Assembly: GCA_017511715.1 (NCBI GenBank)
Contig: JAFWJF010000001.1
Location: forward strand, 2,892-66,891
Direction of reading: 5' to 3'
From: Alphaproteobacteria bacterium
GTDB taxonomy: Bacteria > Pseudomonadota > Alphaproteobacteria > Rs-D84
DNA: 64,000 nucleotides
Positions 2,844 through 62,581 of the stretch are shown one piece after another. The notes beneath the pieces were generated by a model, which was not told where the DNA came from, did no database searches, and saw only the letters and a program-made list of their open reading frames with translations. Both the position numbers and the translations under genes were made by a program. Positions within the stretch are counted from its first letter, which is position 1; every line of letters starts with the position of its first letter.

Positions 2844-2897
2844 GAACCCTCGTCTAAAGCTTGGGAAGCTTTCGTTCTGCCATTATACCATGCCCGC
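2824..2897 (-). tRNA. tRNA-Gly (anticodon CCC)
   Basis: Reverse complement gcgggcatggtataatggcagaacgaaagcttCCCaagctttagacgagggttcgattccctttgcccgcacca. Cloverleaf with 7-bp acceptor stem, T-loop GGTTCGATTCC, encoded CCA. Confidence 0.85.
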
Positions 2898-3045
2898 AGA
2901 AACCGACCCAGTGATGATATATCTTTTTGTTTGAAATGTCCAGTGATTTTAATGCGCAAATGCAATTTTCTGCCTTTATTTATATATTGTGTGTATGCAA
3001 TAATCAGTCTGTTAGATGTTTTTTGGTTGTATAAAAGGTGTTCGT

Positions 3046-31369: not shown

Positions 31370-31948
31370 ATGAACAAAAATTTGCACGATATTATTTTTT
31401 CAATATACGAATATTTTGGCAAGGATAGAGAAAAACTTGATGAGGCGCGGTCCGAATTTTACCGTATTGGCGAAGCCAACCCACGTGTAGCCCTTATGTT
31501 ATATCGAGCATTATTGACAGATTATATAAACCAAAAAAAGAAAAAAATTGCTTTAGCCGATACAATGCGAATATATTTGATAGTTTCTACTAACGCAGAC
31601 TTTTATCTGATACACCCTATTGATGCATTGTCCATGCCAGAAGCAGATAAGTTCTATGAAACATATCACATAAGATATCCGCGTTCATCAACCATATCAA
31701 AAATCTTAATTAACATGAACAGATTTGATTCTGACAAACCAAAAGGCAAACTAGATTTTAAGAACAAATTGCGCGTAAAATATACAGTAAAAGATTCAAA
31801 CTATCCACACTCGTTCAATAAAAGGATGTTTTTACTGAATAAAAATCGCATCAGCAAAGATACCGTATATAAGAAATTAAGCGGATTAAACAAATTTTTC
31901 ATAGCACAAGCCTATAAAAAATACTTGAAAAAACAAAAATCTTTGTAA
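31370..31948 (+). CDS. hypothetical protein inside the tRNA-Ser islet
   Basis: 192-aa ORF (MNKNLHDIIF...) lying between the tRNA and the duplicated tRNA 3' end. Confidence 0.4.
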   Translation: MNKNLHDIIFSIYEYFGKDREKLDEARSEFYRIGEANPRVALMLYRALLTDYINQKKKKIALADTMRIYLIVSTNADFYLIHPIDALSMPEADKFYETYHIRYPRSSTISKILINMNRFDSDKPKGKLDFKNKLRVKYTVKDSNYPHSFNKRMFLLNKNRISKDTVYKKLSGLNKFFIAQAYKKYLKKQKSL

Positions 31949-31962
31949 AAAGAAATCACACA

Positions 31963-32108
31963 TCAAAATCATATGAATTAACAGATTTTACAATCGCATC
32001 AACCAATTTGTTTTGATGAGAATCTGATTTTAATAATTTTTCTTCGTTTTTGTTGGACAAATGCCCCAGTTCTATCAATGCACCCGGTACAGTCGAACGC
32101 AATACTGG
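31963..32108. repeat. direct duplicate of the 3' end of amiC (~145 bp, one mismatch), partner at 33898-34042
   Basis: tcaaaatcatatgaattaacagattttacaatcgcatcaacc...cgaacgcaatactg present twice. Confidence 0.85.
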
Positions 32109-32258
32109 TCATTTTTTATTTATCGTGTATGGGTATGGGGTTAGACGCTACAACGAAGTTGTTGGGTTCGACAAGCAGTAGGTTTTGGAAGCAAGGCGCA
32201 CCAAAACCGTTACGATTGCCCCGCAGGCGAAAGCCGAGGAAATCCTCCATCTCCGCCA
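32109..32258 (+). mobile_element. tRNA-3'-end-associated repeat element (short variant) ending in a duplicated tRNA-Ser(CGA) 3' end
   Basis: Core caacgaagttgttgggttcgacaagcagtaggttttggaagcaaggcgcaccaaaaccgttacgattgcc, about 85% identical to the reverse complement of 2664-2760. The final 15 nt cctccatctccgcca equal 31340-31354. Confidence 0.7.
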
Positions 32259-32288: not shown

Positions 32289-33875
32289 TTATCTGCTGTT
32301 GTCAGGAATTGTCTTGTCCTGTGTTTTTGTAGTTGTTTTTTTTAACAGTTTTTTTACTGCATTTTTCAATTTTTCTTTTTTGCTTTCCCCTTGCATTTTC
32401 AATTTCAGTTCGTTTGCGAAATCTTTAAACTTTTCATGCAAAACAATTGATACTTTGTGAGGTTCTGGTTTCACAAAAATATTATCACTCCATAAAAAAT
32501 CACTCCCTATTCCTTTAACATTTGGCAGATTTATCGACTTTAAGTTTGTATTTTCAGTTAAAAATTCATCGCCAATATCTTCTACTTTCGGTAAACTTAT
32601 TGATGTTAACATTTTATTGTAATACAAGAATCTATTACCAATTTTTTCAACTTTTGGCATGTTTATTGATGTTAATATTTCGTTATTTTCCAAGAAATAG
32701 TCGCCAATTCTTTTTACAGATGGCAAATCTATTGATGTCAATGCGTTATTAGAATTTAAGAAATGCATACCGATTTGTTCGACCTTTGGTAGCGCTATTG
32801 ATGATAACATCTTGTTCTTCACTAAGAAATCACAACCAATTTTCTTAACATTTGGTAAATTTATTGTTGTTAAACTTTTGTTGTGTTCTAAAAAAACGTC
32901 TTTAATTTTTTCTGTTGTAGCTAAATCTAATTCTATAATCTGCCCTTTGAATATTACAATACGATTGCCGTCCAGTGTGGATAACGTCGTTTCTTTTGTT
33001 ATTTTGTTATATGTTCTGGTAACTTTTTTCCCGTTAAATGCCAGATAAAAAACATCAAATGTTGTGCCGTAATCAATTGGTGAAGTTATTGTTTTATCTT
33101 TATCATTATAAATCATGCCATCAAACATGATTTCGCGGTCTTTGTTCAATCGTGTAATTGTGCCACCAGTAAAATAATAATCGTCACCGATGTAAATGTT
33201 GTCTCTTTCAAAACTGTACCAGACCAACTGGTCATTAACCCAAACATAGTTATTTGGCATTTTAATATCAGAAACATTGAATTCTACATCAAAGAATTTT
33301 CGCAATGAATTTGTAAGTCCCGGGATGATATTATCTGGGTTATTACCGAATGTTGCATCTGGATTGTTTACTGTATGGTTATAACGATTTTTAATAGATA
33401 TAAATCCACCACCCTTTGCAATTTGAATTGATATAACAGATGTTCCGTATTCGTCTTCGCGTTCTGGATTTGCGGATGGTTTTATTTTGTCTGCGCCACG
33501 TTTTACCGCATGAATTATATAAAAGTTTTCATGCCTATTGGGGTCACTGAAAGTACATAATTCTTCGCCGGGGCGATAATATTTTTTTATTGAATCTTTT
33601 TGTTTTTTACTTTCAACTATAAACGCGTCATAGCCCGCTTCATCTAACAATTCTAACGGCTTTTTATCTGTGGTATATTGGGATGCAGACATTATTTTAC
33701 ATTTAGACCGGATTGTTGGTATCAATCTTTCTAGATCTTCTAATTGTGTAAATTCTAATATGTGTTCAATATTTGGAACATCCAGCAATTCGGCATTGCG
33801 AAGAATCTTGGCAAAACGTTCACCGCGATGCTTTTTAATATTTTTAAAAACTTCGGCTGTATCTATTTCTTTCAT
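32289..33875 (-). CDS. BspA-type leucine-rich repeat protein with unknown N-terminal domain
   Basis: C-terminal tandem repeats of about 23 aa (LPNVKKIGCDFLVKNKMLSSIALPKVEQIGMHFL...). No signal peptide. Confidence 0.7.
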   Translation of the reverse strand: MKEIDTAEVFKNIKKHRGERFAKILRNAELLDVPNIEHILEFTQLEDLERLIPTIRSKCKIMSASQYTTDKKPLELLDEAGYDAFIVESKKQKDSIKKYYRPGEELCTFSDPNRHENFYIIHAVKRGADKIKPSANPEREDEYGTSVISIQIAKGGGFISIKNRYNHTVNNPDATFGNNPDNIIPGLTNSLRKFFDVEFNVSDIKMPNNYVWVNDQLVWYSFERDNIYIGDDYYFTGGTITRLNKDREIMFDGMIYNDKDKTITSPIDYGTTFDVFYLAFNGKKVTRTYNKITKETTLSTLDGNRIVIFKGQIIELDLATTEKIKDVFLEHNKSLTTINLPNVKKIGCDFLVKNKMLSSIALPKVEQIGMHFLNSNNALTSIDLPSVKRIGDYFLENNEILTSINMPKVEKIGNRFLYYNKMLTSISLPKVEDIGDEFLTENTNLKSINLPNVKGIGSDFLWSDNIFVKPEPHKVSIVLHEKFKDFANELKLKMQGESKKEKLKNAVKKLLKKTTTKTQDKTIPDNSR

Positions 33876-33890
33876 TTTGTTATTCTCTTT

Positions 33891-35084
33891 TTAAACGTCA
33901 AAATCATATGAATTAACAGATTTTACAATCGCATCAACCAATTTGTTTTGATGAGAATCTGATTTTAATAATTTTTCTTCGTTTTTGTTGGACAAATGCC
34001 CCAGTTCTATCAACGCACCCGGTACAGTCGAACGCAATACTGCAAATGGCGCATGACGGACAGATGGGCCTTTTTGTTGTTCTATGCTTGCGCGATTAAA
34101 CGATTTAGCACATCCATTTGCGTATTCTTCGCTTAATTCTGCAACAGCACGTTGTTGCAGTGAAGACAAGGCAACACGAATATCTTTGGAAAATTGTTCA
34201 AATCCGTTAACATCTATTTTATCCGCAGCATTTTCTGAATCTGCCAATTTTTGCGCTTCTTCGTCTGATGCTTTTTCAGACAAAGTATAAATTGAAAAGC
34301 CCTTCATGTCACGACTTGGGTTTGCGTTTGCATGCAAAGAAATGAATAAATCGGCGTGTTTCTTTTCGGCAAATTCTGCGCGTTCTGCCAATTTAAGAAA
34401 AGTATCATTAGAACGAGTCAGGTATGTTTTGTATCCGTTTGCTTCCAGTTTGCTTTTCAGTTTTTTTGCGACAGACAAAACAACCGTTTTTTCTTGTGTG
34501 CCACCACGCCCTGTACATCCCGGGTCTTTGCCACCATGTCCAGGATCAATAACTATGACACGTTTCGCAGAATTATTATTTGTTGTTGATTTTGTTTCTG
34601 ACTTTGTTGCTGTTTTTGCAGTCGTTGTTGATACGGGGGCTGATACGTCTATTCCGCGCCCTGTCCCGGCAGCAAAATCAATAACCAACCGATAATCGTT
34701 ATCGCCATTTGGTTCCAGAATCATTATTTGTTTTTTATCAATCGCGTCTATAAGCCCAGATAATGCACACAACACCTGTAATTTCGTACCATCTTGAATT
34801 TGGGTGACGCGCTTTATCATTGTGTCGTTTGCCAGTTTTGGCTGTATACTGCTGCTGCCCGAAGTGTTTGACAGATTTACAATTAACTGTTTGTCACCAT
34901 AAGATAAATCATATACTGGACGTGAAGAAGTTTCGATTACTAATCGTGTCTTGCCGCCTGGTTGCAGACCTGTTCTTATTGAACGCACCGCATTCGGTGC
35001 AGAAAAAGCAACACGTGGTGCAATCCCAACGACTAACGCACTGAAACTAACTGTCCTTAAAAGTTGTCTGCGACTTAATTTCAT
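33891..35084 (-). CDS. amiC: N-acetylmuramoyl-L-alanine amidase (AmiC-like; Tat signal, AMIN and Amidase_3 domains)
   Basis: Tat motif SRRQLLRTVSF and amidase core VIVIDPGHGGKDPG...LFISLHANA. The ORF could start at 35132. Confidence 0.9.
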   Translation of the reverse strand: MKLSRRQLLRTVSFSALVVGIAPRVAFSAPNAVRSIRTGLQPGGKTRLVIETSSRPVYDLSYGDKQLIVNLSNTSGSSSIQPKLANDTMIKRVTQIQDGTKLQVLCALSGLIDAIDKKQIMILEPNGDNDYRLVIDFAAGTGRGIDVSAPVSTTTAKTATKSETKSTTNNNSAKRVIVIDPGHGGKDPGCTGRGGTQEKTVVLSVAKKLKSKLEANGYKTYLTRSNDTFLKLAERAEFAEKKHADLFISLHANANPSRDMKGFSIYTLSEKASDEEAQKLADSENAADKIDVNGFEQFSKDIRVALSSLQQRAVAELSEEYANGCAKSFNRASIEQQKGPSVRHAPFAVLRSTVPGALIELGHLSNKNEEKLLKSDSHQNKLVDAIVKSVNSYDFDV

Positions 35085-38458: not shown

Positions 38459-38535
38459 GCACCCATAGCACAACTGGATAATGCGTTGGCCTCCGAAGCC
38501 AAAGATTGCAGGTTCGAGTCCCGCTGGGTGCGCCA
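38459..38535 (+). tRNA. tRNA-Arg (anticodon CCG)
   Basis: gcacccatagcacaactggataatgcgttggcctCCGaagccaaagattgcaggttcgagtcccgctgggtgcgcca. Confidence 0.85.
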
Positions 38536-38539
38536 TGAA

Positions 38540-38572
38540 TAAAAAAAGACCCAGCAGGGTCTGTTTTTTATT
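38540..38572 (+). terminator. rho-independent terminator after tRNA-Arg
   Basis: aaaaaaagacccagcagggtctgtttttt. Confidence 0.6.
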
Positions 38573-38575
38573 CAC

Positions 38576-38712
38576 TTATGAAGCACCGCGGGACAGGTCA
38601 GAGCGAAGCGCATGACCAATCCGCAGATAAACAATTAAGAAAATATTAAAAAATCGACGTTCACGAGATTTTTTTGATTTTATTTATTGTTTATCAAGGG
38701 CTGGGTGCGCCA
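38576..38712 (+). mobile_element. tRNA-associated repeat element (long variant) ending in a duplicated tRNA-Arg 3' end
   Basis: 38622-38697 is about 85% identical to 18667-18742. The upstream part is a diverged version of the core (aagcgca..acc.a.ccgcag). It ends with gctgggtgcgcca, equal to 38523-38535. Confidence 0.6.
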
Positions 38713-41011: not shown

Positions 41012-44000
41012 ATGGCGGGAATCAAGCCTTTTTATAACATGTTAAAGCGTTTAATATTTGCAATATTCGTAGTGTTTACTGCAAATTCTGCATTTGCGGC
41101 GTGTGCTAGCAATCAAATTGATGTAAATGGTGATGGAACCAAATGTGAGGATGTGAAATTCACATTAGACCTTTCCAGAAGTTCAAACATAACGGTTTTC
41201 AATTTCTTTATGTCTGCCAAAGGAACATTTTATGTCGATTGCGGCAATGGCGGAACATTGACCAGCAATTCTGCCACTAATTACCCGGTATCGGGCAAAA
41301 CAGTTAACCGTACCTATGGAACGGGTAATGTAAGGTACTCTTGTACATGGGCCAATGGCAGCAAGACACAAACAATTAGGTTTGGTGGGGTTGCAGAAGG
41401 ATATAGCACCAATACAAGCACCGCCGCAATACGTTTTAATTATAATGCAACACAAGCGGCATATATAACATCAGTTTCTGGTAATTTGTCCGCTATGTTC
41501 CCGTATATTACAAACAATGCACAAAGTGGTGCACAACCAAGATTTTATATGACTTTTGATAAAGCGACAAACCTGAAAAGTATCCCCGATACATTGTTTG
41601 CAAATTACACAACACCGGCAACAAATATGTTTCATTCTACGTTTAACAATTCAGGATTGACATCAATACCTAGCAATTTGTTTTCCACCATATCTGGCGC
41701 AGCAGAAGGTCTGTTTTCTAGCACATTTAATGGATGTACCGGCTTAACATCAATACCTGGCAATTTGTTTTCCACCATATCTGGCGCAGCAAACAGCTTG
41801 TTCTATGGCACATTTCAGAATTGTACCGGCTTAACATCAATACCTAGCAATTTGTTTTCCGGGGTGTCTGGCGGGGCAAGTTCTATGTTTTTTTTCACGT
41901 TTAAAGGATGTACCGGCTTAACATCAATACCTGGCAATCTGTTTTCCACCATATCTGGCGCAGCAAACAGCTTGTTCTATGGCACATTTAGTGGATGTAC
42001 CGGCTTGACATCAATACCTAGCAATTTGTTTTCCACCATATCTGGCGCAGCAGACGGTCTGTTTTCTAACACATTTAATGGATGTACCGGCTTAACATCA
42101 ATACCTGGCAATCTGTTTTCCGGGGTGTCTGGCGGGGCAAGTTCTATGTTTTCTTACACGTTTAATGATTGCAGTTCGATATCTGCAATACCGGCAGGAC
42201 TATTTTCCGGTGTAAACCAGGCGGCAACAGGTTTGTTCATGAATGCATTTTCTGGTTCTGGGGTAAGTGGTTATATACCACCGACCACATTTTCCGGGTT
42301 GATTTCGGCGGGCAGCCCACAAAGTTCAGATATGTGGCTAGATACATTTTCATACACGAATTTAACAGCGACTTGTCCACAGGGAACAACGCAGTATATG
42401 ACAGGATACGAAGGTGGCACTAATGGTCCTACATGGAATGGGATGGTTTCTTGTACGCCAAATTCGACCACTGCAATTGCAGTAACTTTGGACAGTGCAG
42501 GCGCGACCACAAATGCCACACCTTCGACAATATATCTTCGATACGAGGATCGTTGGTACAGTAATTCTGCCCTTTCTGTTCAGATAAGTTCGCTTAACAC
42601 CATTCCATCAAAAACGGGATATATGTTCGGCGGTTTTTACACTCAACCAAATGGTTCCGGAATACAAATTATCAATTCAAATGGTTACATCTTGCAAACC
42701 ATGGAAGCAATCACGTTTACAACCACACCGACAACCGTGTATGCTTATTGGATAGAACCAAAGTTCACATTAACAACATCATCGACCAACAGTTTTCAAT
42801 TTAAACTATCTGCCGCTGGTACATTCTATGTAGACTGCGGAAACGGTGGAACGTTAAGTGGAACCGGGGCGTCCGGAAACACAATTACGCGTGCCGACAC
42901 AACCGAAGCGACATATACATGTTCATGGACCAACAGTGCAACACGAACAATCAGATTCAGCGGTGCCGCAACCGGGTATAATTCGTCTTATGGTGTTGCA
43001 GCAATAAAGTTTAATATGACAGATGCTGCCACTGATGCAAACGCAGCATTGTTAACGGGTATGTCTGGCACACTGGGGTCAATATTCGGAACAGTTGCCA
43101 CCGCCAGCACAGGCTCTGTTCAACCAGCATTTAATAAGACATTTTATGGTGCATCAAACCTTAATGCGTCAATACCGTCAAACTTTTTTGCGGGCGTTCA
43201 TGGTGCACCACGCGGGGGAATGTTTCAACAAACCTTTTCTGGATGCAGCAGTTTGACCGGCTCTATCCCAGAAACCCTATTCTGTGAAAACACGACCAAT
43301 CCAAGTGCATCAAACTGTATCTATGGAGCACCAATTGGGGCAATGTTTGAACATACATTCCTTGGTTGTAGTGGTTTGACGGGTTCTATCCCAGAAAAAC
43401 TGTTTGTGGGTATCCATGGCGCGCCTGCAAGTTATATGTTTTCTCAGACATTTAATGGATGTAGTGGTTTGACGGGTTCTATCCCAGAAAAACTATTCTG
43501 TCAAAACACAACCAGCCCATCTGCATCAAACTGTATCTATGGCGCACCGGCATCATCTATGTTTGCCTTGACATTTTATGGATGTAGTGGATTAACTGGC
43601 TCTATTCCAGAAAAACTGTTCGTTGGTATCCATGGTGCACCAGCAAATAATATGTTTCAACAAACATTCTATAATTGTAGTGGTTTAACTGGCTCTATTC
43701 CAGAAAAACTATTCTGTCAAAACACAACCAGTCCATCTACATCAAACTGTATCTATGGCGCGCCGGCAAGAGCTATGTTTTTTCACACTTTTTCTGGTTG
43801 TACAAATTTAACTGGTTTGATACCACAAAACCTTTTCAAAGGGATATACGGCGCGCCGGCAGAAAATATGTTTAATGGTACATTTAGGAATGACAACAAA
43901 TTGACAGGAATAACCGACGGCACAACTACCACAACCTATGTTCCATCAACATTCCTTAGCGCGATTAACAACACAAGCGCAACAACACCAGCAACAGGAA

Positions 44001-47000
44001 TGTTTACTGGTACGGGGCTTGCATCGTCTTGTCCGACGTGGGCAGCCGCCGCAACACCGGTATGGGCAACTGATGCTGGTAAGCCATGGTGCGAACCAGA
44101 TATAAAATTCACATTAAACACATTAGCGACTAACAGTTTTCAATTTAAACTATCTGCCGCTGGTACATTCTATGTAGACTGCGGAAATGGCGGAAGGTTA
44201 AGTGTGGTAAACGGTAACGGAACAGTTTCTGGGAATACGATAACAAAAACAGGTACTTCGTGGGGGACATTTGAATGTTCTTGGGATGATACCGAACCAC
44301 AAACACTTCGATTTGGTGGTGCAGCATCAGGGTACACTGCAAGCCAATCAGGCGGTGCAATAAGATTTAATGTTTCTGATACAAACCAAGATGATGATAC
44401 AAACGCACCAAAGATCACCGGAATATCCGGGTCATTGGGTGCAATATTTGGAACCATAGATGGCACGGTTTCCCCAACAGGCGCGGAATCACAACCAAGA
44501 TTCTATGGAACATTTTGGGCTGCATCCAACCTTGCTGGTTCAATACCAGACGAGCTTTTCTATGGCATACATGGCACACCAATATCATATATGTTTAACC
44601 GTACTTTCCGTGGTTGTAGCAGTTTAACTGGAAAAATACCTGAAACATTATTCTGTCAAAACACAAGCAACCCAAATGCATCAAACTGTATTTATGGCGC
44701 ACCGACACAACAGATGTTTTACATGACTTTTCACGGATGTAGCGGTTTGACAGGAAATTCTTCAACCGGATATGCCATTCCTGCAAAATTATTTGCAGGT
44801 ATTCGTGGTGATCCATCTTCAGCATCGAGTGTGTTTGGTTATACATTTTCCGGTTGTAGTGGTTTAAATGGGCAAATACCTGAAACATTATTCTGTCAAA
44901 ACCCGAACAGCCCCAGTGCATCAAACTGTATCTATGGTGCGCCGGCATCAAATATGTTTTCATTTACATTCCAAGGATGCACTGGTTTGACAGGTGACGG
45001 TATACATGCCGTTCCAGTAAAGTTGTTTGCAGGTCTCCATGGCGCGCCGGCACCAAAAATGTTTCAATCTACTTTTACTGGCGACACAGGATTGACAGGG
45101 GAAATTCCACCTGCGCTATTCTGTGGTGGTAATACGAATAATCTGAGTAATCCATCTGCCTCAAACTGTATCTATGGCACCCCGGCAACAGAAATGTTTA
45201 ATAGTACGTTTTATAATACTAGAATAACACATGTAGATAAAAATATGTTTGCGGGGATATCCGGTACTTCTGCGGAAAAGATGTTCTATCGTACATTTAA
45301 AAGTTGTAGTTCATTGTCGTACATAAATGATACCTTTAACACAAAAGCGACAACTTACATTCCGTCAGATTTCCTTGGTGGCATTACTGATGGATCCGTG
45401 ACAAATGACGCAACAGAAATGTTCACAGGTACGGGACTCACATCACCTTGTCCGACGGGGACAGCCACCGCAACACCGGCGTGGGCAACGGATGCTGCCA
45501 AACCATGGTGTGCACCCAACACATATAGCATTACATATGATATGAATGGTGGAACAAACTATTCCGGCGCACCTACAACATATGTTTATGGGACAAGTAC
45601 AACAATTAATGGCGCACCAACAAAATCAGGCTATATATTCAAAGGATGGACTGGTTCTAATGGTTCAACACCACAACCAACCGTGACGATTGGTGCAAGT
45701 GCCACCGGGGCAAAATCTTACACTGCGAACTGGGAAACGGCAAAATTCACATTAACCACATCAGGAATGAGCGATTTCAGCTTCAAGCTTTCGCCAAAGG
45801 GAACATTCTATGTCGATTGCGGAAATGGTGGAACGTTAAGTGGTCAAAGCGCGTCCGGCAGTACAGTTTCCGTCAACACAATCACACGTACAACCACAAC
45901 CGCAACAACATATACTTGTAGCTGGGCCAGTAGTGCTGGAAACAAAACAATATCTTTTGGCGGGTCTGCCACAAATACCACAACAACATATAACTCAGAT
46001 ACGAACGTACCAGCAATACATTTTTTGGAAAGTAGTAATGCAGACTCAATCAAAAGCGTATCTGGTAATTTGTCCGCGATGTTCCCGTACATCACATCAA
46101 ATGCACAAAGTGGTGCTCAACCAAGGTTTAACAGAACATTTTATGATGCAACACACTTGACCAGTGTTCCCGATACATTATTCGCAAATTATACCACACC
46201 CGCAACATATATGTTTAGTAATACATTTGCAAGTTCTGGGTTAACATCGATACCGGCGGGACTGTTTTCCCGCATAACCGGTGCAGCAACCGGTTTGTTC
46301 GAGGGTACATTTAGCGGTGCGCGCTTAACATCAGTGCCGGCGGGGCTATTTGCCGGGATATCTGGTGTGGCAGACAGTTTGTTTAATAGCACATTTACTG
46401 GCACACCAATAACATCTATACCAGAGAATTTGTTTGCCGGGGTATCGGGGTCTGCATCTGGCGTGTTTTCTTACGCTTTTTATCGTTGCGCTAGCCTGGC
46501 CACCATAACAAATGGGCAAACAAGTACGACCTATGTTCCGGGAACGTTCCTTAGTGATGTTACTGGCAATGACAATTACATTGGTGCCGACATGTTTGGC
46601 ATGACAGACTTGGCTGACACCTGTCCATATGGTATGGGCGATACAACACCGGCATGGGCAAGTGATGCTGGTAAACCATGGTGTTCTCCCAATACATATA
46701 CAATAACCTATTCTGCCGGTCAAGGTGGCGTTGGTGCAAACCAAACGGAAAACGTTGTGTTTGGCACCACATTTACCACAAAATCTGCAAATACGTTTAG
46801 TAAACCACACGCTACATTTACAGGCTGGGATACTCTTGAATACTCTTCAGCCTGGACACAACCAGATACAACATATACTTATGATTTGCCGTCAGATATT
46901 ACGATTGCAGCACAATGGACATGTGATTCTGGATACACATTAAATAACAGCACCGGAAATTGCGATGCCAACAGTATCACATGTGATCCAGGTTTTTATC

Positions 47001-50000
47001 TGAAAGGCAACACTCTAACATGTACGGCATGTCCTGCTGGTAAATATTGCGCGGGTGGCACATACACTCATAACGGTACGGACTTAGGTATAACTGGCGA
47101 TGTTACGGCGGGATATTTTGCTTCTGGTGGTGCAAAGGTCGCAGCCCCAACCAGCAACAGCGATTGCTTAAGCGGTAATACATGCGGTAAATGTACGACA
47201 GATTCTGCCACTGGTCGTCCTGCGTATTCAACAGCTGGAGCAGCAAGTTGTTCGGCATGCCCTGCAGTAACGGGCGATATGGCAAGTCGTGTTATCTCTT
47301 ATGCAGGTTGGTGGAGCAACGATATACATAATGCGGTTACAGGATGCGCTGCCTGGTTCAATGATACAGATAATGATGCAACATTCAGAGTGTATTGCTA
47401 TTATAACACTACAGATGGTGCCTATGGTGGTTCAAACAGCATTTGCCAAGTATGGCATCCGACTGCTTGTGCAGCAGGAAAATATGATACGATAGAATCA
47501 ACAACGGAATGGCTTGCTTCTGCTAATTACACACGTGGGAAAGGTGTAGATTTCATGAATGGCAAGGTTTGTACAAACACAGATGCAGGTTATTACAGTG
47601 CCGAAGGTTCTTTGACACAAACCGCATGTGCAGCAGGCTCTTACAGCAGTGCGGGCGCAAGTACATGTACGGCATGTCCGGCGGGTAAGACAACCGCTGG
47701 CACTGGAACGGCTTTCAACACTAATGCAAACACTACATGTTCAACAAGTTGTTCGTCTATCGCAAACCTGAAAACTTGGAACAGTCAGACTTGGAACAGC
47801 GCAAATAATACAGTGACTAATTTGTGCACGGTTGCAACTTGTAATGCTGGGGCATATAAGTCTGGTAACACTTGTCCGGTTTGTGGTGCGAATTCTTGGT
47901 CAGATGATGGTGCAAGCAGCTGTACAGCATGTAACACGACCAATGGATACACGAACAGTGGAACAACAGCGGCGGCTCATGCTGGTCAGTACAGTTGTAA
48001 GACCACGTGTGCGGCAGGTAAACAAGTTGCAAGTCCTGGCGAGGCATGTTCTACCCCCGGTGGCAGTTGGTATTCTGTTCAACACACTGTAGGGGAAGGA
48101 TCGACATCCGCTGTTCAGCTGATAAGTAATCCGAATGTATTTGATTGTTTAATTGGTGGCTATGCAACACCTGACACAACTATACAAACAGACCACGATG
48201 CAAGCACAGATTGTAGGATAACATGTTCTGCAGGAAGCAGAGTCACAACGCCTAATGGTATGTGTACAGCGATAACGAGTGGCAATGTATATATGCTTGA
48301 ACATACTGTTGCCCAGGGATCTACATCACCAAAAGCAACATCATGCCCAACAAGTTATACAATCAGCGGTTCTACACAAGCAGACCACGATGCGAAGAAC
48401 GATTGTAAGATAACATGTGGTGCTGGATATGTTGTTGACACAGAAGATGGTAATTGTATTGTGCCAGAAGAAGGTTTCCAGACAGGGATACATACAGTAA
48501 GCGCAGGAAGTGTGACACGAATAGATAAAGATCCAGGCATGAACGTACCCCGTGCAGGAATATGGTATGACTGTTTGACTAACTATAGTGCGACAGGCAA
48601 AAGCGCAATCAACCACGATCAAAGAAGTGATTGTAAAATAACATGTAATGCGGGAACACAGATTGCAACTAACAATGCAACTAGGTGCACGACACCGACA
48701 GGAAGTTGGTACACAGAACAACATACAGTAAGTGCAGGCAGCACGAGTAGTCCAACCAGTTGTGCGACAGGCTATGCAACAGCAAACACATCAACCGCAA
48801 CAGACCACGATGCGCAAGCCGATTGTAAGATTGGGTGCAGTGCTGGATATTATATACCAACAGCAGGTGGTGGATGCAAGGCATGTCCTGCTGGTAAATA
48901 CTGCACAGCAATAAGTGGTATTGCAGAAACTGCAACATCTGCCGCGACAGGAAACATAACGGCTGGGTATTTTGCTTCTGGTGGTGCAAAGGTCGCAACC
49001 CCAACAAGTAGCAGCGATTGCTTAAGCGGTAATACATGCGGCACATGCCAGGGACAGAATGGACCAAATGGTCGTCCACTTTATACTGATGCAACCGGCG
49101 GCGCAGCACAATGTTCTGAGTGTCCAGCAGTAGAAGCATCTTTAACAAGTCGTGTTGTCTCATATGGTTATTGGCCAGATACGCGTGACAGAGGGATACA
49201 AAATTGTTCTGCGAAATTCACTGATACAGATCCTGATGCTACGTTTACTACGGAATGTTATTATAGAGGCTCTAATTATCATGAATCCTTTAACTGTCAA
49301 ACCGCCGCACCAACCGCTTGTGCTGCGGGTAAGTATGAAACTATCAGAACAACAGACAAATGGGGCACATATTACGCCATTGGTACTGGAGTAGATCATA
49401 TGAACGGTAAGGTTTGTACGGATACAGATGCAGGTTATTACAGTGCCGAAGGTTCTTTGACACAAACCGCATGTGCAACGGGTTCATACAGCAGTGCTGG
49501 CGCAAGTACATGTACGGCATGTCCGGCGGGTAAGACAACCGCTGGCACCGGAACAGCTTTCAACACTAATGCAAACACTACATGTTCAACAAGTTGTTCG
49601 TCTATCACAAACCTAAAAACTTGGAACAGTCAGACATGGAACAGTTCAAATAATACAGTGACTAATTTGTGCACGGTTGCGACTTGTAATGCTGGGGCAT
49701 ATAAGTCTGGTAACACTTGTCCGGTTTGTGGGGCGAATTCTTGGTCAGATGCTGGTGCAAGCAGCTGTACAGCATGTCAAACAGATTATACCAACAGCGG
49801 AACAACAGCGACAAACCATGCAGGAAACGCATCTTGTAAGATAACTGTATCTGGCGGTCATTATATTGGCACACCCGGTCAAAACAGCACAAACTGGGGA
49901 ACATGTGATGCAGGAACCTTTAAGGCGCAACATACCGTGGCATATGGCAGCACAAGTAGTTGTTCGAACTGCGAAGGCAGAACGAAGTACAGTGCGGCAG

Positions 50001-51613
50001 GTGCATCATCTTGTTCAACTGTAAGCAGTGGATATTACTCAACAGGATGTACATCTAATAATAACTGTACAGGACAATCACAGTGTACGGGTGCAACATA
50101 CTGTGCAAGTGGTGTACAAAACAACTGTCCGACAGCAGAAAGCACATGGACACAGGGTACTGGTAATGGATGGACAGCTGTAACACAGTGCTTTGAGACC
50201 AAGAACGCAACAGATGTAAGCAGTTATTGCAGTGCTGGACAATTAAAGAAGAACGCTACGAACACCACGACCTGGGGCGACAGCACAATAAGCACAGCGT
50301 TGAAAGCAAAAGCGGGTTCTATTGTAAGCGGACAAACATGTACACAATGTACAGGTGCCACATTCTCGGCTGGTGATACTGCGACAAGTTGTAGTGCATG
50401 CCCGACTGGATATGATGCGAACACAGATGCTGGCAAGAGCACGAACACACAATGCCAGATAAGTGTGACGGGCGGTCATTATATTGGTACGAAGGGTCAG
50501 ACAAGTTCTAACTGGGATACATGTGCGGCAGGTACATACAAGGCAGCACACACTGTGAACTATAACAGCACAAGTAGTTGTTCGAACTGCGAAGGCAGAA
50601 CGAAGTACAGTGCGGCGGGTGCATCATCTTGTTCAACTGTCACCAGCGGATACTATTCAACCGGTTGTGACACATCGACAAACAATAACTGTACAGGACA
50701 ATCAAAGTGTACTGGAAAAACATATTGCACAAATGGTGTACAGGAAGATTGTCCAGCCGCAGCTGATCACAAACGTACAACGTTCCCAGCAGCATATTAT
50801 TCGCCAACAATTACAAGCACATCCATAATGAGTGCCAGTAGACGCAAGGCAATCACAGAATGTAAGGCTTCTTCGACAATGACTGGGGCACGCGGAACAT
50901 TGATTGATCAAGCAACATATAACCCAACCACAGAAGAATACGACACCACAACATGGTATGGATATTATAATGTTAAACCGGGGTATTATTTGACCACCAC
51001 GGGCAGTTGCGGAACATACGCATACTATCAAAATGCGGAAATTTGTCCAGATGGTGCTTATTGTCCGGGCAAGGCGGGGGTTAAGTGTGATTCTAGCAAC
51101 GAAGCAACCGTTCATACGCCAACATTCGGTCTGGAAGAATGTTCAGCATTGAACAGCGAATATACAAAATCTGATAGTGGGCGCAATGCAGCAACCGATT
51201 GCTATCTGAACACGACAGCAACAAAATATGTTGCAACTGCTGGTGAAAACCAAGTTGATTGTATTGCAGACGGATATTGTCCGGGTAATGTAAAGATATA
51301 TTATAACAGCATTGGTGGACGCACTGCGTGCCCTGCCACAGCACCATATAGTGGCGCGGGTATGTCAAGGCCCGAACAATGCGGACGCAAGTTGCATATT
51401 GGCGATAACGTAATGTATTTGCGTTCTGAAAAAGCAACGACACCTTCGCTGAACGTCAATTTTGGTGGCATGACATATTATGGAAATATGGCAGAAACCC
51501 AAGCAAACATTACAAGTTCTTCAACCAAAGAATTGAAGATTAAATACAAAAATAATAACAAATTGTACTACTTGTGTGATGACACAACCTGTCCAGAGGC
51601 AGACAACGATTAA
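41012..51613 (+). CDS. giant secreted mosaic surface protein (3533 aa): four N-modules with BspA-like LRR blocks, Listeria-Bacteroides repeats, ephrin-receptor-like Cys-rich repeats, conserved C-terminal domain
   Basis: Signal peptide MAGIKPFYNMLKRLIFAIFVVFTANSAFA. Four copies of KFTL..F.FKLSAAGTFYVDCGNGGTLSG...TYTCSW...TIRFGG. LRR repeats LFxxISGAAxxLFxxTFxGCTGLTSIP. Repeats of the form YxITYxxNGG...GYxFKGW. More than 20 C..G.Y..(A)G...C..CPAGKxxxG motifs. Single uninterrupted ORF. Confidence 0.9.
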   Translation: MAGIKPFYNMLKRLIFAIFVVFTANSAFAACASNQIDVNGDGTKCEDVKFTLDLSRSSNITVFNFFMSAKGTFYVDCGNGGTLTSNSATNYPVSGKTVNRTYGTGNVRYSCTWANGSKTQTIRFGGVAEGYSTNTSTAAIRFNYNATQAAYITSVSGNLSAMFPYITNNAQSGAQPRFYMTFDKATNLKSIPDTLFANYTTPATNMFHSTFNNSGLTSIPSNLFSTISGAAEGLFSSTFNGCTGLTSIPGNLFSTISGAANSLFYGTFQNCTGLTSIPSNLFSGVSGGASSMFFFTFKGCTGLTSIPGNLFSTISGAANSLFYGTFSGCTGLTSIPSNLFSTISGAADGLFSNTFNGCTGLTSIPGNLFSGVSGGASSMFSYTFNDCSSISAIPAGLFSGVNQAATGLFMNAFSGSGVSGYIPPTTFSGLISAGSPQSSDMWLDTFSYTNLTATCPQGTTQYMTGYEGGTNGPTWNGMVSCTPNSTTAIAVTLDSAGATTNATPSTIYLRYEDRWYSNSALSVQISSLNTIPSKTGYMFGGFYTQPNGSGIQIINSNGYILQTMEAITFTTTPTTVYAYWIEPKFTLTTSSTNSFQFKLSAAGTFYVDCGNGGTLSGTGASGNTITRADTTEATYTCSWTNSATRTIRFSGAATGYNSSYGVAAIKFNMTDAATDANAALLTGMSGTLGSIFGTVATASTGSVQPAFNKTFYGASNLNASIPSNFFAGVHGAPRGGMFQQTFSGCSSLTGSIPETLFCENTTNPSASNCIYGAPIGAMFEHTFLGCSGLTGSIPEKLFVGIHGAPASYMFSQTFNGCSGLTGSIPEKLFCQNTTSPSASNCIYGAPASSMFALTFYGCSGLTGSIPEKLFVGIHGAPANNMFQQTFYNCSGLTGSIPEKLFCQNTTSPSTSNCIYGAPARAMFFHTFSGCTNLTGLIPQNLFKGIYGAPAENMFNGTFRNDNKLTGITDGTTTTTYVPSTFLSAINNTSATTPATGMFTGTGLASSCPTWAAAATPVWATDAGKPWCEPDIKFTLNTLATNSFQFKLSAAGTFYVDCGNGGRLSVVNGNGTVSGNTITKTGTSWGTFECSWDDTEPQTLRFGGAASGYTASQSGGAIRFNVSDTNQDDDTNAPKITGISGSLGAIFGTIDGTVSPTGAESQPRFYGTFWAASNLAGSIPDELFYGIHGTPISYMFNRTFRGCSSLTGKIPETLFCQNTSNPNASNCIYGAPTQQMFYMTFHGCSGLTGNSSTGYAIPAKLFAGIRGDPSSASSVFGYTFSGCSGLNGQIPETLFCQNPNSPSASNCIYGAPASNMFSFTFQGCTGLTGDGIHAVPVKLFAGLHGAPAPKMFQSTFTGDTGLTGEIPPALFCGGNTNNLSNPSASNCIYGTPATEMFNSTFYNTRITHVDKNMFAGISGTSAEKMFYRTFKSCSSLSYINDTFNTKATTYIPSDFLGGITDGSVTNDATEMFTGTGLTSPCPTGTATATPAWATDAAKPWCAPNTYSITYDMNGGTNYSGAPTTYVYGTSTTINGAPTKSGYIFKGWTGSNGSTPQPTVTIGASATGAKSYTANWETAKFTLTTSGMSDFSFKLSPKGTFYVDCGNGGTLSGQSASGSTVSVNTITRTTTTATTYTCSWASSAGNKTISFGGSATNTTTTYNSDTNVPAIHFLESSNADSIKSVSGNLSAMFPYITSNAQSGAQPRFNRTFYDATHLTSVPDTLFANYTTPATYMFSNTFASSGLTSIPAGLFSRITGAATGLFEGTFSGARLTSVPAGLFAGISGVADSLFNSTFTGTPITSIPENLFAGVSGSASGVFSYAFYRCASLATITNGQTSTTYVPGTFLSDVTGNDNYIGADMFGMTDLADTCPYGMGDTTPAWASDAGKPWCSPNTYTITYSAGQGGVGANQTENVVFGTTFTTKSANTFSKPHATFTGWDTLEYSSAWTQPDTTYTYDLPSDITIAAQWTCDSGYTLNNSTGNCDANSITCDPGFYLKGNTLTCTACPAGKYCAGGTYTHNGTDLGITGDVTAGYFASGGAKVAAPTSNSDCLSGNTCGKCTTDSATGRPAYSTAGAASCSACPAVTGDMASRVISYAGWWSNDIHNAVTGCAAWFNDTDNDATFRVYCYYNTTDGAYGGSNSICQVWHPTACAAGKYDTIESTTEWLASANYTRGKGVDFMNGKVCTNTDAGYYSAEGSLTQTACAAGSYSSAGASTCTACPAGKTTAGTGTAFNTNANTTCSTSCSSIANLKTWNSQTWNSANNTVTNLCTVATCNAGAYKSGNTCPVCGANSWSDDGASSCTACNTTNGYTNSGTTAAAHAGQYSCKTTCAAGKQVASPGEACSTPGGSWYSVQHTVGEGSTSAVQLISNPNVFDCLIGGYATPDTTIQTDHDASTDCRITCSAGSRVTTPNGMCTAITSGNVYMLEHTVAQGSTSPKATSCPTSYTISGSTQADHDAKNDCKITCGAGYVVDTEDGNCIVPEEGFQTGIHTVSAGSVTRIDKDPGMNVPRAGIWYDCLTNYSATGKSAINHDQRSDCKITCNAGTQIATNNATRCTTPTGSWYTEQHTVSAGSTSSPTSCATGYATANTSTATDHDAQADCKIGCSAGYYIPTAGGGCKACPAGKYCTAISGIAETATSAATGNITAGYFASGGAKVATPTSSSDCLSGNTCGTCQGQNGPNGRPLYTDATGGAAQCSECPAVEASLTSRVVSYGYWPDTRDRGIQNCSAKFTDTDPDATFTTECYYRGSNYHESFNCQTAAPTACAAGKYETIRTTDKWGTYYAIGTGVDHMNGKVCTDTDAGYYSAEGSLTQTACATGSYSSAGASTCTACPAGKTTAGTGTAFNTNANTTCSTSCSSITNLKTWNSQTWNSSNNTVTNLCTVATCNAGAYKSGNTCPVCGANSWSDAGASSCTACQTDYTNSGTTATNHAGNASCKITVSGGHYIGTPGQNSTNWGTCDAGTFKAQHTVAYGSTSSCSNCEGRTKYSAAGASSCSTVSSGYYSTGCTSNNNCTGQSQCTGATYCASGVQNNCPTAESTWTQGTGNGWTAVTQCFETKNATDVSSYCSAGQLKKNATNTTTWGDSTISTALKAKAGSIVSGQTCTQCTGATFSAGDTATSCSACPTGYDANTDAGKSTNTQCQISVTGGHYIGTKGQTSSNWDTCAAGTYKAAHTVNYNSTSSCSNCEGRTKYSAAGASSCSTVTSGYYSTGCDTSTNNNCTGQSKCTGKTYCTNGVQEDCPAAADHKRTTFPAAYYSPTITSTSIMSASRRKAITECKASSTMTGARGTLIDQATYNPTTEEYDTTTWYGYYNVKPGYYLTTTGSCGTYAYYQNAEICPDGAYCPGKAGVKCDSSNEATVHTPTFGLEECSALNSEYTKSDSGRNAATDCYLNTTATKYVATAGENQVDCIADGYCPGNVKIYYNSIGGRTACPATAPYSGAGMSRPEQCGRKLHIGDNVMYLRSEKATTPSLNVNFGGMTYYGNMAETQANITSSSTKELKIKYKNNNKLYYLCDDTTCPEADND

Positions 51614-61228: not shown

Positions 61229-61311
61229 ATTTTACCTCTTTTCCACCTGCGATTATACACAATTAAAGGAAGTTATTTCAACACAATAAAATACCTTTGC
61301 TCTAAAAAAAA

Positions 61312-61335
61312 CACCCTTTCGGGTGTTCAAACTTT
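61312..61335 (-). terminator. terminator following the duplicated tRNA-Gly(GCC) 3' end
   Basis: Plus strand aaaaaacaccctttcgggtgttcaaac. Minus strand is a hairpin plus T-run. Confidence 0.5.
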
Positions 61336-61348
61336 GGTGCGAGCAAAG
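61333..61348. repeat. duplicated 3' end of tRNA-Gly(GCC) (tttggtgcgagcaaag), partner at 61436-61451
   Basis: 16-bp exact direct repeat flanking an 87-bp insert. Confidence 0.75.
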
Positions 61349-61437
61349 TACTTCGGCAACTAGCGTTGCCTCGCCTCGCAACTCGCCCCTTTGCCGCAAA
61401 AATCAAAAACCGCCCTAACGGACGGTTTTAAAATTTT

Positions 61438-61514
61438 TGGTGCGAGCAAAGGGGCTCGAACCCTCGACCTCAACCTTGGCAAGGTTGCGCTCTAGCCAAC
61501 TGAGCTACGCTCGC
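61438..61514 (-). tRNA. tRNA-Gly (anticodon GCC)
   Basis: Reverse complement gcgagcgtagctcagttggctagagcgcaaccttGCCaaggttgaggtcgagggttcgagcccctttgctcgcacca. Confidence 0.85.
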
Positions 61515-61594
61515 ATTGCCCGCATATTCTGACATACTTTTTTATACATTGCAAGCACTTTTTGCAAAAAAACACCGCCCAAACGGGCGGATGC

Positions 61595-62581
61595 TTATAT
61601 TCCGAACCAACGCCACGGTTGAAACGCGCGCAAAAGCCCCAACGCAGTGCGTTTGTCGGCAATCGTATGACCACAACGTGGGCACACCAGGAACGGCTTC
61701 AAGAAGGCATTAACTTTGGAAAAAACAACACCCCAGATAAAGATTCCCGCAATCCATGCTGCAATTACCAAGCCCCACGCAACCAAGTTGAAATAATGGT
61801 TAACTGTGCGGGTCAAGATTTGAACAACACCTAAATTTGATTTCTCTAAATCGTTATAAATCCTTGTTGCCACTGGCCAAGATGATGGACGCCATGGATA
61901 CACATGTTTGATTCCATAATTGGTCAACAATGTTGTACCAAGTCCCGTTTTTTTATCAAGTTGCTTTTTGATTGCTTCATCAATCATCTTGTCGACTTCA
62001 ATTTGGGAAACTTTGACAAGTTCGGTTTTAACAGAATCAAGTTTTTTATTAACCTGTTCTGCCACAGCATCAACCTTTGCGATACCTTTATCAGCGGTCG
62101 CAACTGCTTTGTTCGTTTCTTCAACGGCCTTGTCTATTTCGCCTGTTTTAATTCCAAATTTATTTGCCAAACCAGTTATCGCAGAAACTTTTTTTGTTTC
62201 TTGTTTTACTTTATTTGTTTGTTCTTTGGCTTTGGCGGTTGTATCGGTCACTTTATCGACCTGTTTTTCAACTATTTTTACCTTTTCAATCGCAACACCT
62301 ATCGGTTTTTCAAGGTTAATAGAATCTTTTATTCCATCCAACAATCTTTGATATTGTTCTTGGATATTACGTTGCAAATCAAAAAACATGGATACAACCA
62401 TAGACTTTTTGATTGGACCAGCATAATGATTCTTTACATACAACGGAAACCATGCAACAAATATAAGCCATATCACAGATATAACCGCAAAAACGCGTTT
62501 AGTCATTTTGATAACAGACGGTTTTTTTGCAACTGTTTTTGCACCGCCACGATCAATTACTTCGATTTCTTTTCTTGCCAT
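61595..62581 (-). CDS. membrane protein with coiled-coil region and C-terminal CPRCGH zinc-ribbon-like motif
   Basis: TM helices near both ends, a K/E-rich coiled coil between them. The antisense ORF 61904-62659 is F-rich junk. Confidence 0.5.
   Translation of the reverse strand: MARKEIEVIDRGGAKTVAKKPSVIKMTKRVFAVISVIWLIFVAWFPLYVKNHYAGPIKKSMVVSMFFDLQRNIQEQYQRLLDGIKDSINLEKPIGVAIEKVKIVEKQVDKVTDTTAKAKEQTNKVKQETKKVSAITGLANKFGIKTGEIDKAVEETNKAVATADKGIAKVDAVAEQVNKKLDSVKTELVKVSQIEVDKMIDEAIKKQLDKKTGLGTTLLTNYGIKHVYPWRPSSWPVATRIYNDLEKSNLGVVQILTRTVNHYFNLVAWGLVIAAWIAGIFIWGVVFSKVNAFLKPFLVCPRCGHTIADKRTALGLLRAFQPWRWFGI

Follow-up and report, generated by a model that had tools for sequence, protein, structure and literature searches.

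Genomic islands and prophages that are mobilized by integrases leave attL/attR repeats of tRNA-gene 3' ends, and direct repeats of tRNA 3' ends are widely taken as the footprint of an integrase. In other systems a tRNA-like end is carried by an RNA: the tRNA-like domain of tmRNA, viral tRNA-like structures, mascRNA and the external guide sequences of RNase P are RNAs of this kind that are matured by tRNA enzymes. Small RNAs are also known from the 3' external transcribed spacers of tRNAs, 3'ETS-leuZ of E. coli being one example. Fragments of tRNA genes have been reviewed (bioRxiv 10.1101/2022.07.05.498093).

The DNA described here belongs to a Candidatus Enterousia-like alphaproteobacterium with a reduced genome. 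Candidatus Enterousia belongs to the uncultured order Rs-D84 and is a gut and rumen lineage with genomes that are mostly smaller than 1 Mb and ~90% coding (PMC12306168). In the window, the whole 64-kb stretch of DNA that was analysed, the tRNA-Gly(GCC) gene is followed by an 87-bp insert and a second copy of the tRNA 3' end. The first-pass annotation had suggested that this arrangement may be a decayed insertion. We conclude with high confidence that the insert and the repeat are one copy of a locus-specific, genus-wide module appended to tRNA-Gly(GCC), a unit that we call M. M is conserved, structured and specific to its locus, and it combines an invariant core with a terminator and with sequence from the 3' third of the tRNA itself.

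The repeat and insert at tRNA-Gly(GCC)

A search of the window for the 16-mer TTTGGTGCGAGCAAAG returned two exact copies, at 61333-61348 and 61436-61451, with a spacing of 87 bp (61349-61435). When up to two mismatches were allowed there were 4 matches against 0.10 expected, and four or more were found in none of 100 shuffled sequences; the remaining two matches are the equivalent repeat at tRNA-Gly(CCC). Because ARAGORN and Rfam both place tRNA-Gly(GCC) at 61438-61514, the copy at 61436-61451 is the genuine 3' end of the minus-strand tRNA plus 2 nt, as the first-pass annotation had proposed. The features of the locus, listed from the tRNA onward, are:

61438-61514, minus strand: tRNA-Gly(GCC), CCA encoded (ARAGORN; Rfam RF00005, 65.9 bits)
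61436-61451, minus strand: direct repeat 1, the true tRNA 3' end (CTTTGCTCGCACCA + AA on the tRNA strand)
61406-61429, minus strand: terminator 1, within the insert and directly 3' of the tRNA, AAAACCGTCCGTTAGGGCGGTTTT followed by TGATTTTT
61385-61397, minus strand: B-piece, the 5' arm, GCGGCAAAGGGGC, in which GCCCCTTTGC(T)CGC of the tRNA is copied in inverted orientation
61382-61389, minus strand: junction J1 GGGGCGAG, overlapping the B-piece, 97% identical in 20 species
61370-61381, minus strand: junction J2 TTGCGAGGCGAG, 100% identical in 20 species
61356-61369, minus strand: hairpin P3 (GCAAC GCTA GTTGC), variable in sequence between species, pairing kept
61349-61355, minus strand: junction J3 CGAAGTA (with the next C, CGAAGTAC), 100% identical in 20 species
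61333-61348, minus strand: direct repeat 2, the 3' arm, consisting of the tRNA's last 14 nt including CCA, plus AA
61309-61328, minus strand: terminator 2 (GAACACCCGAAAGGGTGTTT + T-run), 3' of the second repeat
61294-61301, minus strand: residual AGCAAAGG past terminator 2, the truncated start of a further inverted arm

The two terminators share the strand of the tRNA. The second repeat had been said to precede a terminator, caccctttcgggtg, and a terminator-like minus-strand hairpin is indeed found at 61328-61309. This terminator 2 is of the original type, to judge from sister species (L001 and L002). As had been suggested, the 87 bp do behave like DNA inserted 3' of the tRNA, ahead of the trailer and terminator that originally followed it: in L002 a terminator of the CACCC type is the only one and adjoins the tRNA. 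The tRNA-proximal terminator of the window is of the CCGTCC type, unlike that of L002, and forms the middle of a long palindrome, in which the tRNA 3' end and trailer make up the left arm. Residuals resembling AGCAAAGG also follow the last terminator in L016, L028, L010, L039 and L049.

The 87-bp insert contains no ORF, and neither does any unit at any locus. No promoter-like site was found between tRNA-Gly(GCC) and M, and a promoter of M's own was rejected for this reason. Three independent assemblies from other samples (L079, L080 and L081) are identical to the window over the stretch that they cover, L081 ending inside the tRNA, which excludes an assembly artefact.

Distribution, conservation and predicted fold of M

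Orthologous loci, at least 55 in number, were collected by a scan with the neighbouring GMP-reductase-like protein. The 55 loci listed all come from genomes of gut or rumen bacteria that are labelled either Candidatus Enterousia or unclassified Alphaproteobacteria. The tRNA-Gly(GCC) gene is present in 37 of the 55, and 24 of these 37 have a second copy of the tRNA 3' end 102-147 nt past the tRNA. M is absent from the remaining 13 tRNA-bearing loci and is therefore dispensable. The idea that relatives would lack the 87 bp holds for these 13 and fails for the majority, which possess the unit.

A covariance model built from 25 units yielded 39 significant matches to M in the window and in 30 of the 55 orthologous loci listed (670 kb). 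All except one adjoin tRNA-Gly(GCC), or its 3'-end copy where the tRNA lies beyond the locus sequence; the exception is L021, where no tRNA was detected. Full units located 3' of a detected tRNA are without exception on the tRNA strand, and the model found no further match elsewhere in the 64-kb window. A weak match at 11723 in L038 lies within coding sequence and was dismissed as chance. M is carried by ~30 related gut-bacterial species and is the standard form in the genus, with 0-3 copies per genome; L012 and L037 have three tandem copies of the tRNA 3' end, and partial units close several loci. Whether the core occurs in relatives apart from the flanking repeat has a mixed answer. Most have the unit together with the repeat, and the last unit of L014, the last unit of L022 and L021 consist of the core alone.

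Units follow a constant order, in which a trailer and intrinsic terminator of the unit's own precede a structured core of 60-72 nt and a further trailer and terminator come after it. The aligned core reads [A/G]GCAA[A/T]GGGGCGAG, an optional hairpin P2, TTGCGAGGCGAG, the variable P3, CGAAGTAC and [T/A]TTGC[T/C]CGCACCA. P2 has the form AACCC-GNA-GGGTT, and the unit in the window is a short form without it.

The segments of the core differ greatly in their conservation. In 20 species, pairwise identities average 0.97 in J1, 1.00 in J2, 1.00 in J3 and 0.94 in the 3' arm, beside 0.979 in the tRNA. The averages fall to 0.53 in the P3 stem, 0.51-0.59 in the trailers and 0.42 in the 40 nt upstream of the tRNA. 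J2 and J3 together have zero substitutions in 20 nt of sequence that does not derive from the tRNA. The invariant blocks of 8 and 12 nt contain three GCGAG repeats, and the J2 12-mer occurs once in the window. P3 varies in a different manner: five of its six pairs have changes on both sides, 96% of cells are paired as compared to 27-49% when the partner is slid by 1-3 columns, and the covariation score was matched by none of 500 shuffles. The segment identities and the compensatory pairing of P3 show purifying selection on an undecayed unit. The claim that the insert has decayed is contradicted by these data, since its non-hairpin segments are 97-100% identical in 20 species, compared to 42-59% for the flanking non-coding DNA, and hairpin pairing is kept.

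P3 types largely track the GuaC tree, indicating that M is mainly inherited vertically, and M is old. The presence or absence of P2, the terminator types and the P3 types form a mosaic among sister species. An exchange of units would account for this mosaic no less well than a host RNA gene would.

Several lines of evidence connect the unit to the tRNA that precedes it. The B-piece matches an inverted copy of the tRNA with z = 8.2 (0 of 300 shuffles), and simple integration is inadequate as an explanation because part of the insert is the tRNA itself, inverted. Past the terminator, 17 of 17 loci have a significant inverted copy of the tRNA 3' end and trailer (z = 5.7-13.2). The sequence that runs from CCCCTTTGC in the tRNA to GCAAAGGGG in the unit can be folded as one long hairpin with the terminator at its tip, at -25 to -43 kcal/mol in 25 units and -39.2 kcal/mol in the window; the terminator palindrome is 2.6 kcal/mol more stable in the sense than in the antisense direction. 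Compensatory differences extend to the spacers, as in GATATTT/AAATATC, GAAATC/GATTTC and GAATT/AATTC. The 5' arm also tracks lineage-specific variants of the tRNA, AGCAAAG occurring with CTTTGCT and GGCAATG with CATTGCC. A role as an RNA, taken alone, leaves this identity of the arms with the neighbouring tRNA unexplained.

The tRNA-derived part of the core has clear limits. Its first 10-18 nt alone are demonstrably the reverse complement of the tRNA (p < 0.001 for the first 18 nt of the long form), and the half comprising J2, P3 and J3 has no significant similarity to either strand of the tRNA (p = 0.03-0.46). M as a complete inverted pseudo-tRNA was rejected on these grounds.

In the predicted fold the B-piece pairs with the 3' arm in a closing helix, P1. 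P1 has 6-11 pairs, with at least 8 in 16 of 23 units. In the window it consists of 10 pairs (-12.9 kcal/mol) that reach C72 with one bulge and are followed by ACCA; the P1 of other species often ends short of position 72. On the tRNA-sense strand, G-U pairs outnumber A-C mismatches by 8 to 2 in P2 and P3 and by 18 to 2 in P1. A helix between the GCGAG repeats and CTCGC in the 3' arm was considered and rejected: GCGAG remains constant in lineages where the tRNA ends in CCCGC, so selection for this helix is not supported. An alternative acceptor-like stem proposed by RNAalifold fits the data, and its columns are without covariation.

When the sequence was searched with Rfam 15, the tRNA alone matched at gathering thresholds; the next-best scores fell far below them, and nothing else credible appeared at E <= 10. 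A known RNA family was rejected for M because of this result and because the cores of the hammerhead and other ribozymes, compared by eye, did not fit. M belongs to no described family.

Modules at other tRNA genes and genomic islands

M is not the only module of its design. Modules built in the same way, with arms that match their own tRNA in each case, are found at tRNA-Gly(CCC), tRNA-Ser(CGA), tRNA-Ser(UGA) and tRNA-Arg(CCG). Three of them lie in the window:

2611-2843, minus strand: module at tRNA-Gly(CCC)
32124-32258, plus strand: module at tRNA-Ser(CGA), with an inverted piece, hairpins, an X core (its 27-mer at 32165-32191) and, at 32242-32258, a copied tRNA 3' end
38523-38712, plus strand: module at tRNA-Arg(CCG), with GCTGGGTGCGCCA at 38523-38535 and 38700-38712 and an inverted GCACCGCGGGAC past the terminator

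Three tRNAs of the window, tRNA-Gly(CCC), tRNA-Arg(CCG) and tRNA-Gly(GCC), combine a direct 3' copy with an inverted copy past the terminator; none of the five other window tRNAs tested does so. The tRNA-Gly(CCC) module is bounded by 53-nt repeats (2611-2663 and 2791-2843) that consist of the tRNA 3' end and a terminator; the X core (27-mer at 2715-2741) lies between them, along with hairpins and a piece of inverted tRNA. The 3' copy at tRNA-Ser(CGA) is displaced, and the ~95 nt that precede it are homologous to the tRNA-Gly(CCC) module. The 27-mer GGTTCGACAAGCAGTAGRTTTTGGAAG occurs in these two modules and nowhere else in the window, its two versions being identical save one purine. An RNA role alone leaves this recent copying of the X core to another tRNA, with rewritten arms, unexplained.

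Related genomes confirm the order of tRNA, terminator, module, 3' copy and terminator at tRNA-Ser(CGA) (L088) and at tRNA-Ser(UGA) (L085 and L086), all three having the same X scaffold with tRNA-matched arms. Compensatory changes were seen in three hairpins of X modules across three different tRNAs. The right half of an X module is the 3' third of the tRNA with the scaffold inserted in the T loop, and the left arm is its complement. M is built likewise around a shorter insert; a comparison of M with X gave no demonstrable sequence homology.

These observations bear on the family proposed in the first-pass annotation. The motifs common to the tRNA-Gly(GCC) and tRNA-Gly(CCC) inserts are real; they come from two similar tRNA-Gly 3' ends, each copied in inverted form, together with the T-run of a terminator. 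Its suggestion that the insert may be the most decayed member of one family survives in part: the building plan is shared with the inserts at tRNA-Gly(CCC) and tRNA-Ser(CGA), and the unit is not decayed.

The tRNA-Gly(CCC) and tRNA-Arg(CCG) modules are absent from species at 83-87% protein identity. Both are young, and the tRNA-Arg(CCG) module is lineage-specific. For tRNA-Gly(CCC), a metagenome scan gave at least 6 orthologous loci, too few for an analysis of covariation; synteny at the tRNA-Arg(CCG) locus is poor, and the one informative relative is without the module. The ORF at 31370-31948 was considered as a mobilization gene for the tRNA-Ser insert and rejected, having no Pfam match and one distant homologue. 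It lies outside the module, since it is the native neighbour of a tRNA-Ser(CGA) that lacks the module in L082.

Genuine genomic islands also use this tRNA-Gly(GCC) at some loci. Decayed islands of ~3 kb flanked by tRNA-end copies are present in L022, L038 and L051. The L038 island carries NgoFVII restriction-modification genes, a resolvase fragment and an N-terminal integrase fragment (DUF6538, a weak match of 21.8 bits, under the Pfam cut-off of 27 bits), and the L051 island carries a RhuM/Fic gene. Integrase-related fragments are restricted to these separate 3-kb islands, whose ends show no resemblance to M by eye. The island junction is exactly at the 3' copy of M in L022 and L051 and at the true tRNA in L038. 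The tRNA-end copy of M works as an attachment site, because the islands of L022 and L051 join there. In L043 and L049 the tRNA-proximal side of M adjoins the right end of an island, which places the island upstream of M. Rearrangement is also seen on a larger scale: whole tRNA cassettes, from the promoter to the last terminator, are flipped in some species relative to others, with the same two genes on either side.

Explanations for M and comparison with known systems

Our best explanation, put forward tentatively from comparative sequence data, is that M may be a structured RNA that is produced by read-through of terminator 1 and freed by means of its tRNA-like end. RNA polymerase would at times pass terminator 1, and the two tRNA-derived arms would pair to form an acceptor-like helix with an ACCA tail. 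Enzymes of tRNA maturation could then excise and trim the unit, with RNase P, for example, acting on its 5' side and the usual trimming on its 3' end. The predicted product is a stable RNA of ~60-70 nt with the invariant junction nucleotides as its working surface. The RNA reading is indirectly supported by the lack of a promoter between the tRNA and M and by terminators on the same strand. In its favour are also the invariant junctions, the covariation in P3 and in the X hairpins, the 5' arm that tracks tRNA variants, the G-U bias and the greater stability of the terminator palindrome in the sense direction; against it are the absence of M from 13 of the 37 tRNA-bearing loci and the mosaic of terminator, P2 and P3 types. 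Covariation is weaker as proof of an RNA because hairpin pairing can also be made and repaired by template switching in DNA (PMC8794818).

The module may have originated as a fold-back or template-switch duplication of the tRNA 3' third around the terminator hairpin. This origin is plausible and fits the inverted-plus-direct design and the in-place inversions (PMC8794818). Copy number would shift by recombination between repeated blocks of tRNA end plus terminator, and the use of the tRNA-end copy by genomic islands as a second attachment site would be a side effect.

Doubtful, in our estimation, is a reading in which M and X represent an undescribed class of retargetable tRNA-end modules. Each would be a conserved folded scaffold with two arms rewritten per tRNA, one complementary and one identical to the tRNA 3' third, the scaffold being M at tRNA-Gly(GCC) and X at tRNA-Ser(CGA), tRNA-Ser(UGA) and tRNA-Gly(CCC). 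The occurrence of one scaffold behind different tRNAs with matched arms points to an undescribed process of copying or retargeting. If this reading is true, the module would be a guide-like RNA against a specific tRNA or tRNA gene, or else a folded single-strand attachment site through which a cassette without an integrase could exploit tRNA genes.

The main rival to the RNA reading, which we think unlikely, regards M as a miniature non-autonomous integration cassette. A single strand would fold with the inverted arm on the direct arm and so rebuild the duplex of the tRNA 3' third, comparable to integron attC and the attP of the CTX phage; a recombinase acting in trans would insert it at a tRNA 3' end, each integration adding one terminator-bearing unit. 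This is the best account of the arrays, the differing terminators and the retargeted X copies. Every unit is flanked by tRNA-end direct repeats, the 3' copy is a working attachment site for islands, presence is patchy, and tandem arrays of 2-3 units occur (L012, L037 and L009). The proximal terminator may differ from the distal, host-type one (the window, L004, L011, L023, L029 and L040). Furthermore, the X core is common to tRNA-Ser(CGA), tRNA-Ser(UGA) and tRNA-Gly(CCC) with arms matched to each, the two X 27-mers of the window genome are near-identical (one purine apart), and the modules at tRNA-Gly(CCC) and tRNA-Arg(CCG) are young.

Other observations are difficult to reconcile with a cassette. 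A recombinase gene is linked to none of the 39 copies of M, and none was found linked to M in the 55 loci listed. M and X were not found in 2.9 million viral contigs, in which the X 27-mer has 0 matches, and BLAST of M against phage and plasmid collections returned nothing, so that no integrase, phage or plasmid counterpart of M was found. A phage or plasmid origin was rejected: the pattern GCGAGGCGAG..CGAAGTAC has 13 matches in viral contigs, and all of them arose by chance in GC-rich coding DNA, with neither a tRNA nor the flanking motifs. P3 types follow host phylogeny, M persists in places without the tRNA or the 3' copy (L021, and the last unit in L014 and L022), and no polymorphism between empty and filled sites was seen within the strain. 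A cassette also leaves the rewriting of the inverted arm at a new tRNA unexplained.

We consider it very unlikely that M is a neutral by-product of replication with no function, in which a switch at the terminator hairpin copies the tRNA end backwards, an upstream switch-back duplicates the tRNA end and terminator, and unequal crossing-over alters the copy number. The joint occurrence of inverted and direct copies at tRNA-Gly(CCC), tRNA-Arg(CCG) and tRNA-Gly(GCC) as opposed to 0 of 5 other tRNAs, the mirror of the tRNA end and trailer past the terminator in 17 of 17 loci, and the in-place inversion of whole tRNA cassettes between species are all as expected from such a process, and template switching is documented for the making and upkeep of hairpins (PMC8794818). 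Nonetheless, it fails on the zero substitutions in the 20 nt of J2 and J3 beside trailers and a P3 stem that are ~50% identical, and it does not explain the X core at different tRNAs. Template switching is likely to be the origin of the module and not the whole story.

Equally improbable is that M serves as a protein-binding site at the level of DNA, its GCGAG-repeat blocks being half-sites around a cruciform, possibly as a spare landing pad that diverts integrating elements from the single-copy tRNA gene. The invariant 8- and 12-nt blocks with three GCGAG repeats, and the islands of L022 and L051 that lie at the M copy and not at the true tRNA, would suit this role. Islands are found upstream of M in L043 and L049, however, and double-stranded binding does not explain the one-strand G-U bias and the hairpin covariation.

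The earlier view, that M is a decayed integrase-mobilized element with the 16-mers as attL/attR and most of the element deleted, draws on real decayed islands that use the same tRNA and are flanked by tRNA-end copies (L038 and L051) and on the tRNA gene fragments known from integrating elements (bioRxiv 10.1101/2022.07.05.498093), but it is largely refuted by the conservation pattern and now has little probability, given the invariance of the junction segments in 20 species, the identical end points in ~30 species, the inverted tRNA and trailer within the insert, and island ends that are unlike M by eye.

An implication of these results is that tRNA 3'-end repeats can belong to a conserved module built from the tRNA, and that island predictors based on repeats would mis-call such loci. 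Non-coding DNA that is retained in reduced genomes of this kind is usually functional, which makes M and X candidates for new families of RNA or of recombination sites. M is a strongly constrained non-coding element. Since real islands use the tRNA-end copy, the modules also shape the landing sites of foreign DNA.

M differs from dispersed repeats of the MITE or REP type in its location, 38 of 39 matches in 670 kb being at tRNA-Gly(GCC) or its 3'-end copy. It shares with template-switch quasipalindromes (PMC8794818) a reverse-complement copy centred on a hairpin, compensatory changes and in-place inversions, whereas its invariant non-palindromic segments and the scaffold common to several loci set it apart. 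Like 3'ETS-leuZ, M is a candidate functional RNA in the 3' trailer of a tRNA without a promoter of its own; unlike it, M lies beyond an intrinsic terminator, has a second tRNA end and is unrelated in sequence.

M is like integron attC and the CTX-phage attP(+) in being an imperfect palindrome whose outer parts are conserved while its central hairpin varies, in a fold that would rebuild a duplex mimicking the target, and in ORF-less units arrayed beside a fixed site. The target of M, however, is a tRNA 3' end, there are no cassette genes, and no partner of the IntI or Xer type was identified. Judged by eye, M units have no R/L box consensus of attC (GTTRRRY), and they agree with E. coli dif at 8 of 11 positions of one arm and not at all along the other. 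Xer-like proteins are encoded by Enterousia.

M can also be compared with attL/attR scars and with RNAs that have tRNA-like ends. As at such scars, a direct repeat of the tRNA 3' end brackets the insert (16 nt exact in the window; ~25 loci), the tRNA-proximal end brings a terminator, presence varies, and the same tRNA has true islands (L022, L038 and L051). Yet M is ~100 nt long with no integrase gene or remnant, forms tandem arrays, is partly inverted tRNA, and is invariant across species rather than decaying. As in RNAs with tRNA-like ends, the ends of M are predicted to pair as an acceptor-like helix followed by ACCA, and the remainder would replace the body of the tRNA. It differs from them in being without a T arm or elbow and in having arms copied from the neighbouring tRNA gene, and its helix is the perfect complement of the 3' strand, often 1-3 bp short of position 72.

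Inversion of tRNA cassettes

Entire tRNA cassettes, running from the promoter through the tRNA and module to the last terminator, keep their position between the same two neighboring genes but lie in opposite orientation in different species. Such inversions were seen for tRNA-Gly(GCC) and tRNA-Gly(CCC) alike, and their boundaries lie within the A/T runs of the palindromic terminators on the flanks. The loci in related genomes carry L-numbers.

Window 61300-61600 versus L001 5660-5930: tRNA-Gly(GCC) cassette inversion, also in L008, L009, L013, L028, L031, L033, L034 and L037
Window 2824-2897 versus L071 5855-5928: tRNA-Gly(CCC) cassette inversion

The window's tRNA-Gly(CCC) is adjoined by an HNH endonuclease gene (3016-3642; Pfam PF01844). 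At L071 the tRNA, which lies in the opposite orientation to that of the window and lacks the module, is followed by an ORF whose N-terminus is closely similar to that of the HNH gene.

Variant M units and neighboring elements

M is the conserved structured unit appended to tRNA-Gly(GCC). At L021 (1689-1736) an intact M core of the short form, without hairpin P2, is positioned after a terminator, and its covarying hairpin P3 reads GTGGC-ATGT-GCCAC. Neither a tRNA gene nor a copy of the tRNA 3' end was detected at this locus, indicating that the M core is able to persist alone. The first M unit of L014 (5690-5836) has an internal duplication of ~35 nt, in which a portion of the terminator is repeated together with the beginning of the inverted tRNA arm (GGCAAAGGGCGTTAGGTCGG...GGCAAAGGGGCGAG); it is an example of slippage within the palindrome.

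Other elements adjoin the tRNA-Gly(GCC) end copies. A second recurrent element, which is GC-rich (...AAATTTAGTGGCGCGCCGTAGC...GGCGGCGAAGGCGGCC), comes after them in four loci:

L015 55-180: GC-rich element
L025 3706-3790: GC-rich element
L049 5795-5910: GC-rich element
L051 4391-4520: GC-rich element

In L041 (5485-5600), M's 3' copy is immediately followed by a long inverted repeat of high GC content (TCCGTCTTCGCTTCGCTCCGTCGCG...CGCGACGGAG...GACGG). The ORF that comes next has a putative GIY-YIG-like N-terminus, judged by eye. Together they may constitute a further small inserted element.

Repeats in the window and the tRNA-Ser/amidase region

Window positions 41567-50762 are highly repetitive. 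The periods are 87, 216 and 240 nt, and the repeats, which reach 300 nt at 91% identity, may be part of large repeat-rich proteins. Direct repeats of 148 bp (31960-32107 and 33895-34042; 99% identity) are the duplicated 3' end of an N-acetylmuramoyl-L-alanine amidase gene. The 1.9-kb segment between them holds the tRNA-Ser module, built on X, the scaffold of similar modules at tRNA-Ser and tRNA-Gly(CCC) genes, and a protein gene:

32289-33875, minus strand: BspA-type leucine-rich-repeat (LRR) gene

Gene order is tRNA-Ser-ORF-amidase in L082 and tRNA-Ser-module-LRR-amidase in L088, and the window's tRNA-Ser/amidase region looks like a recombinant of these two types of arrangement.
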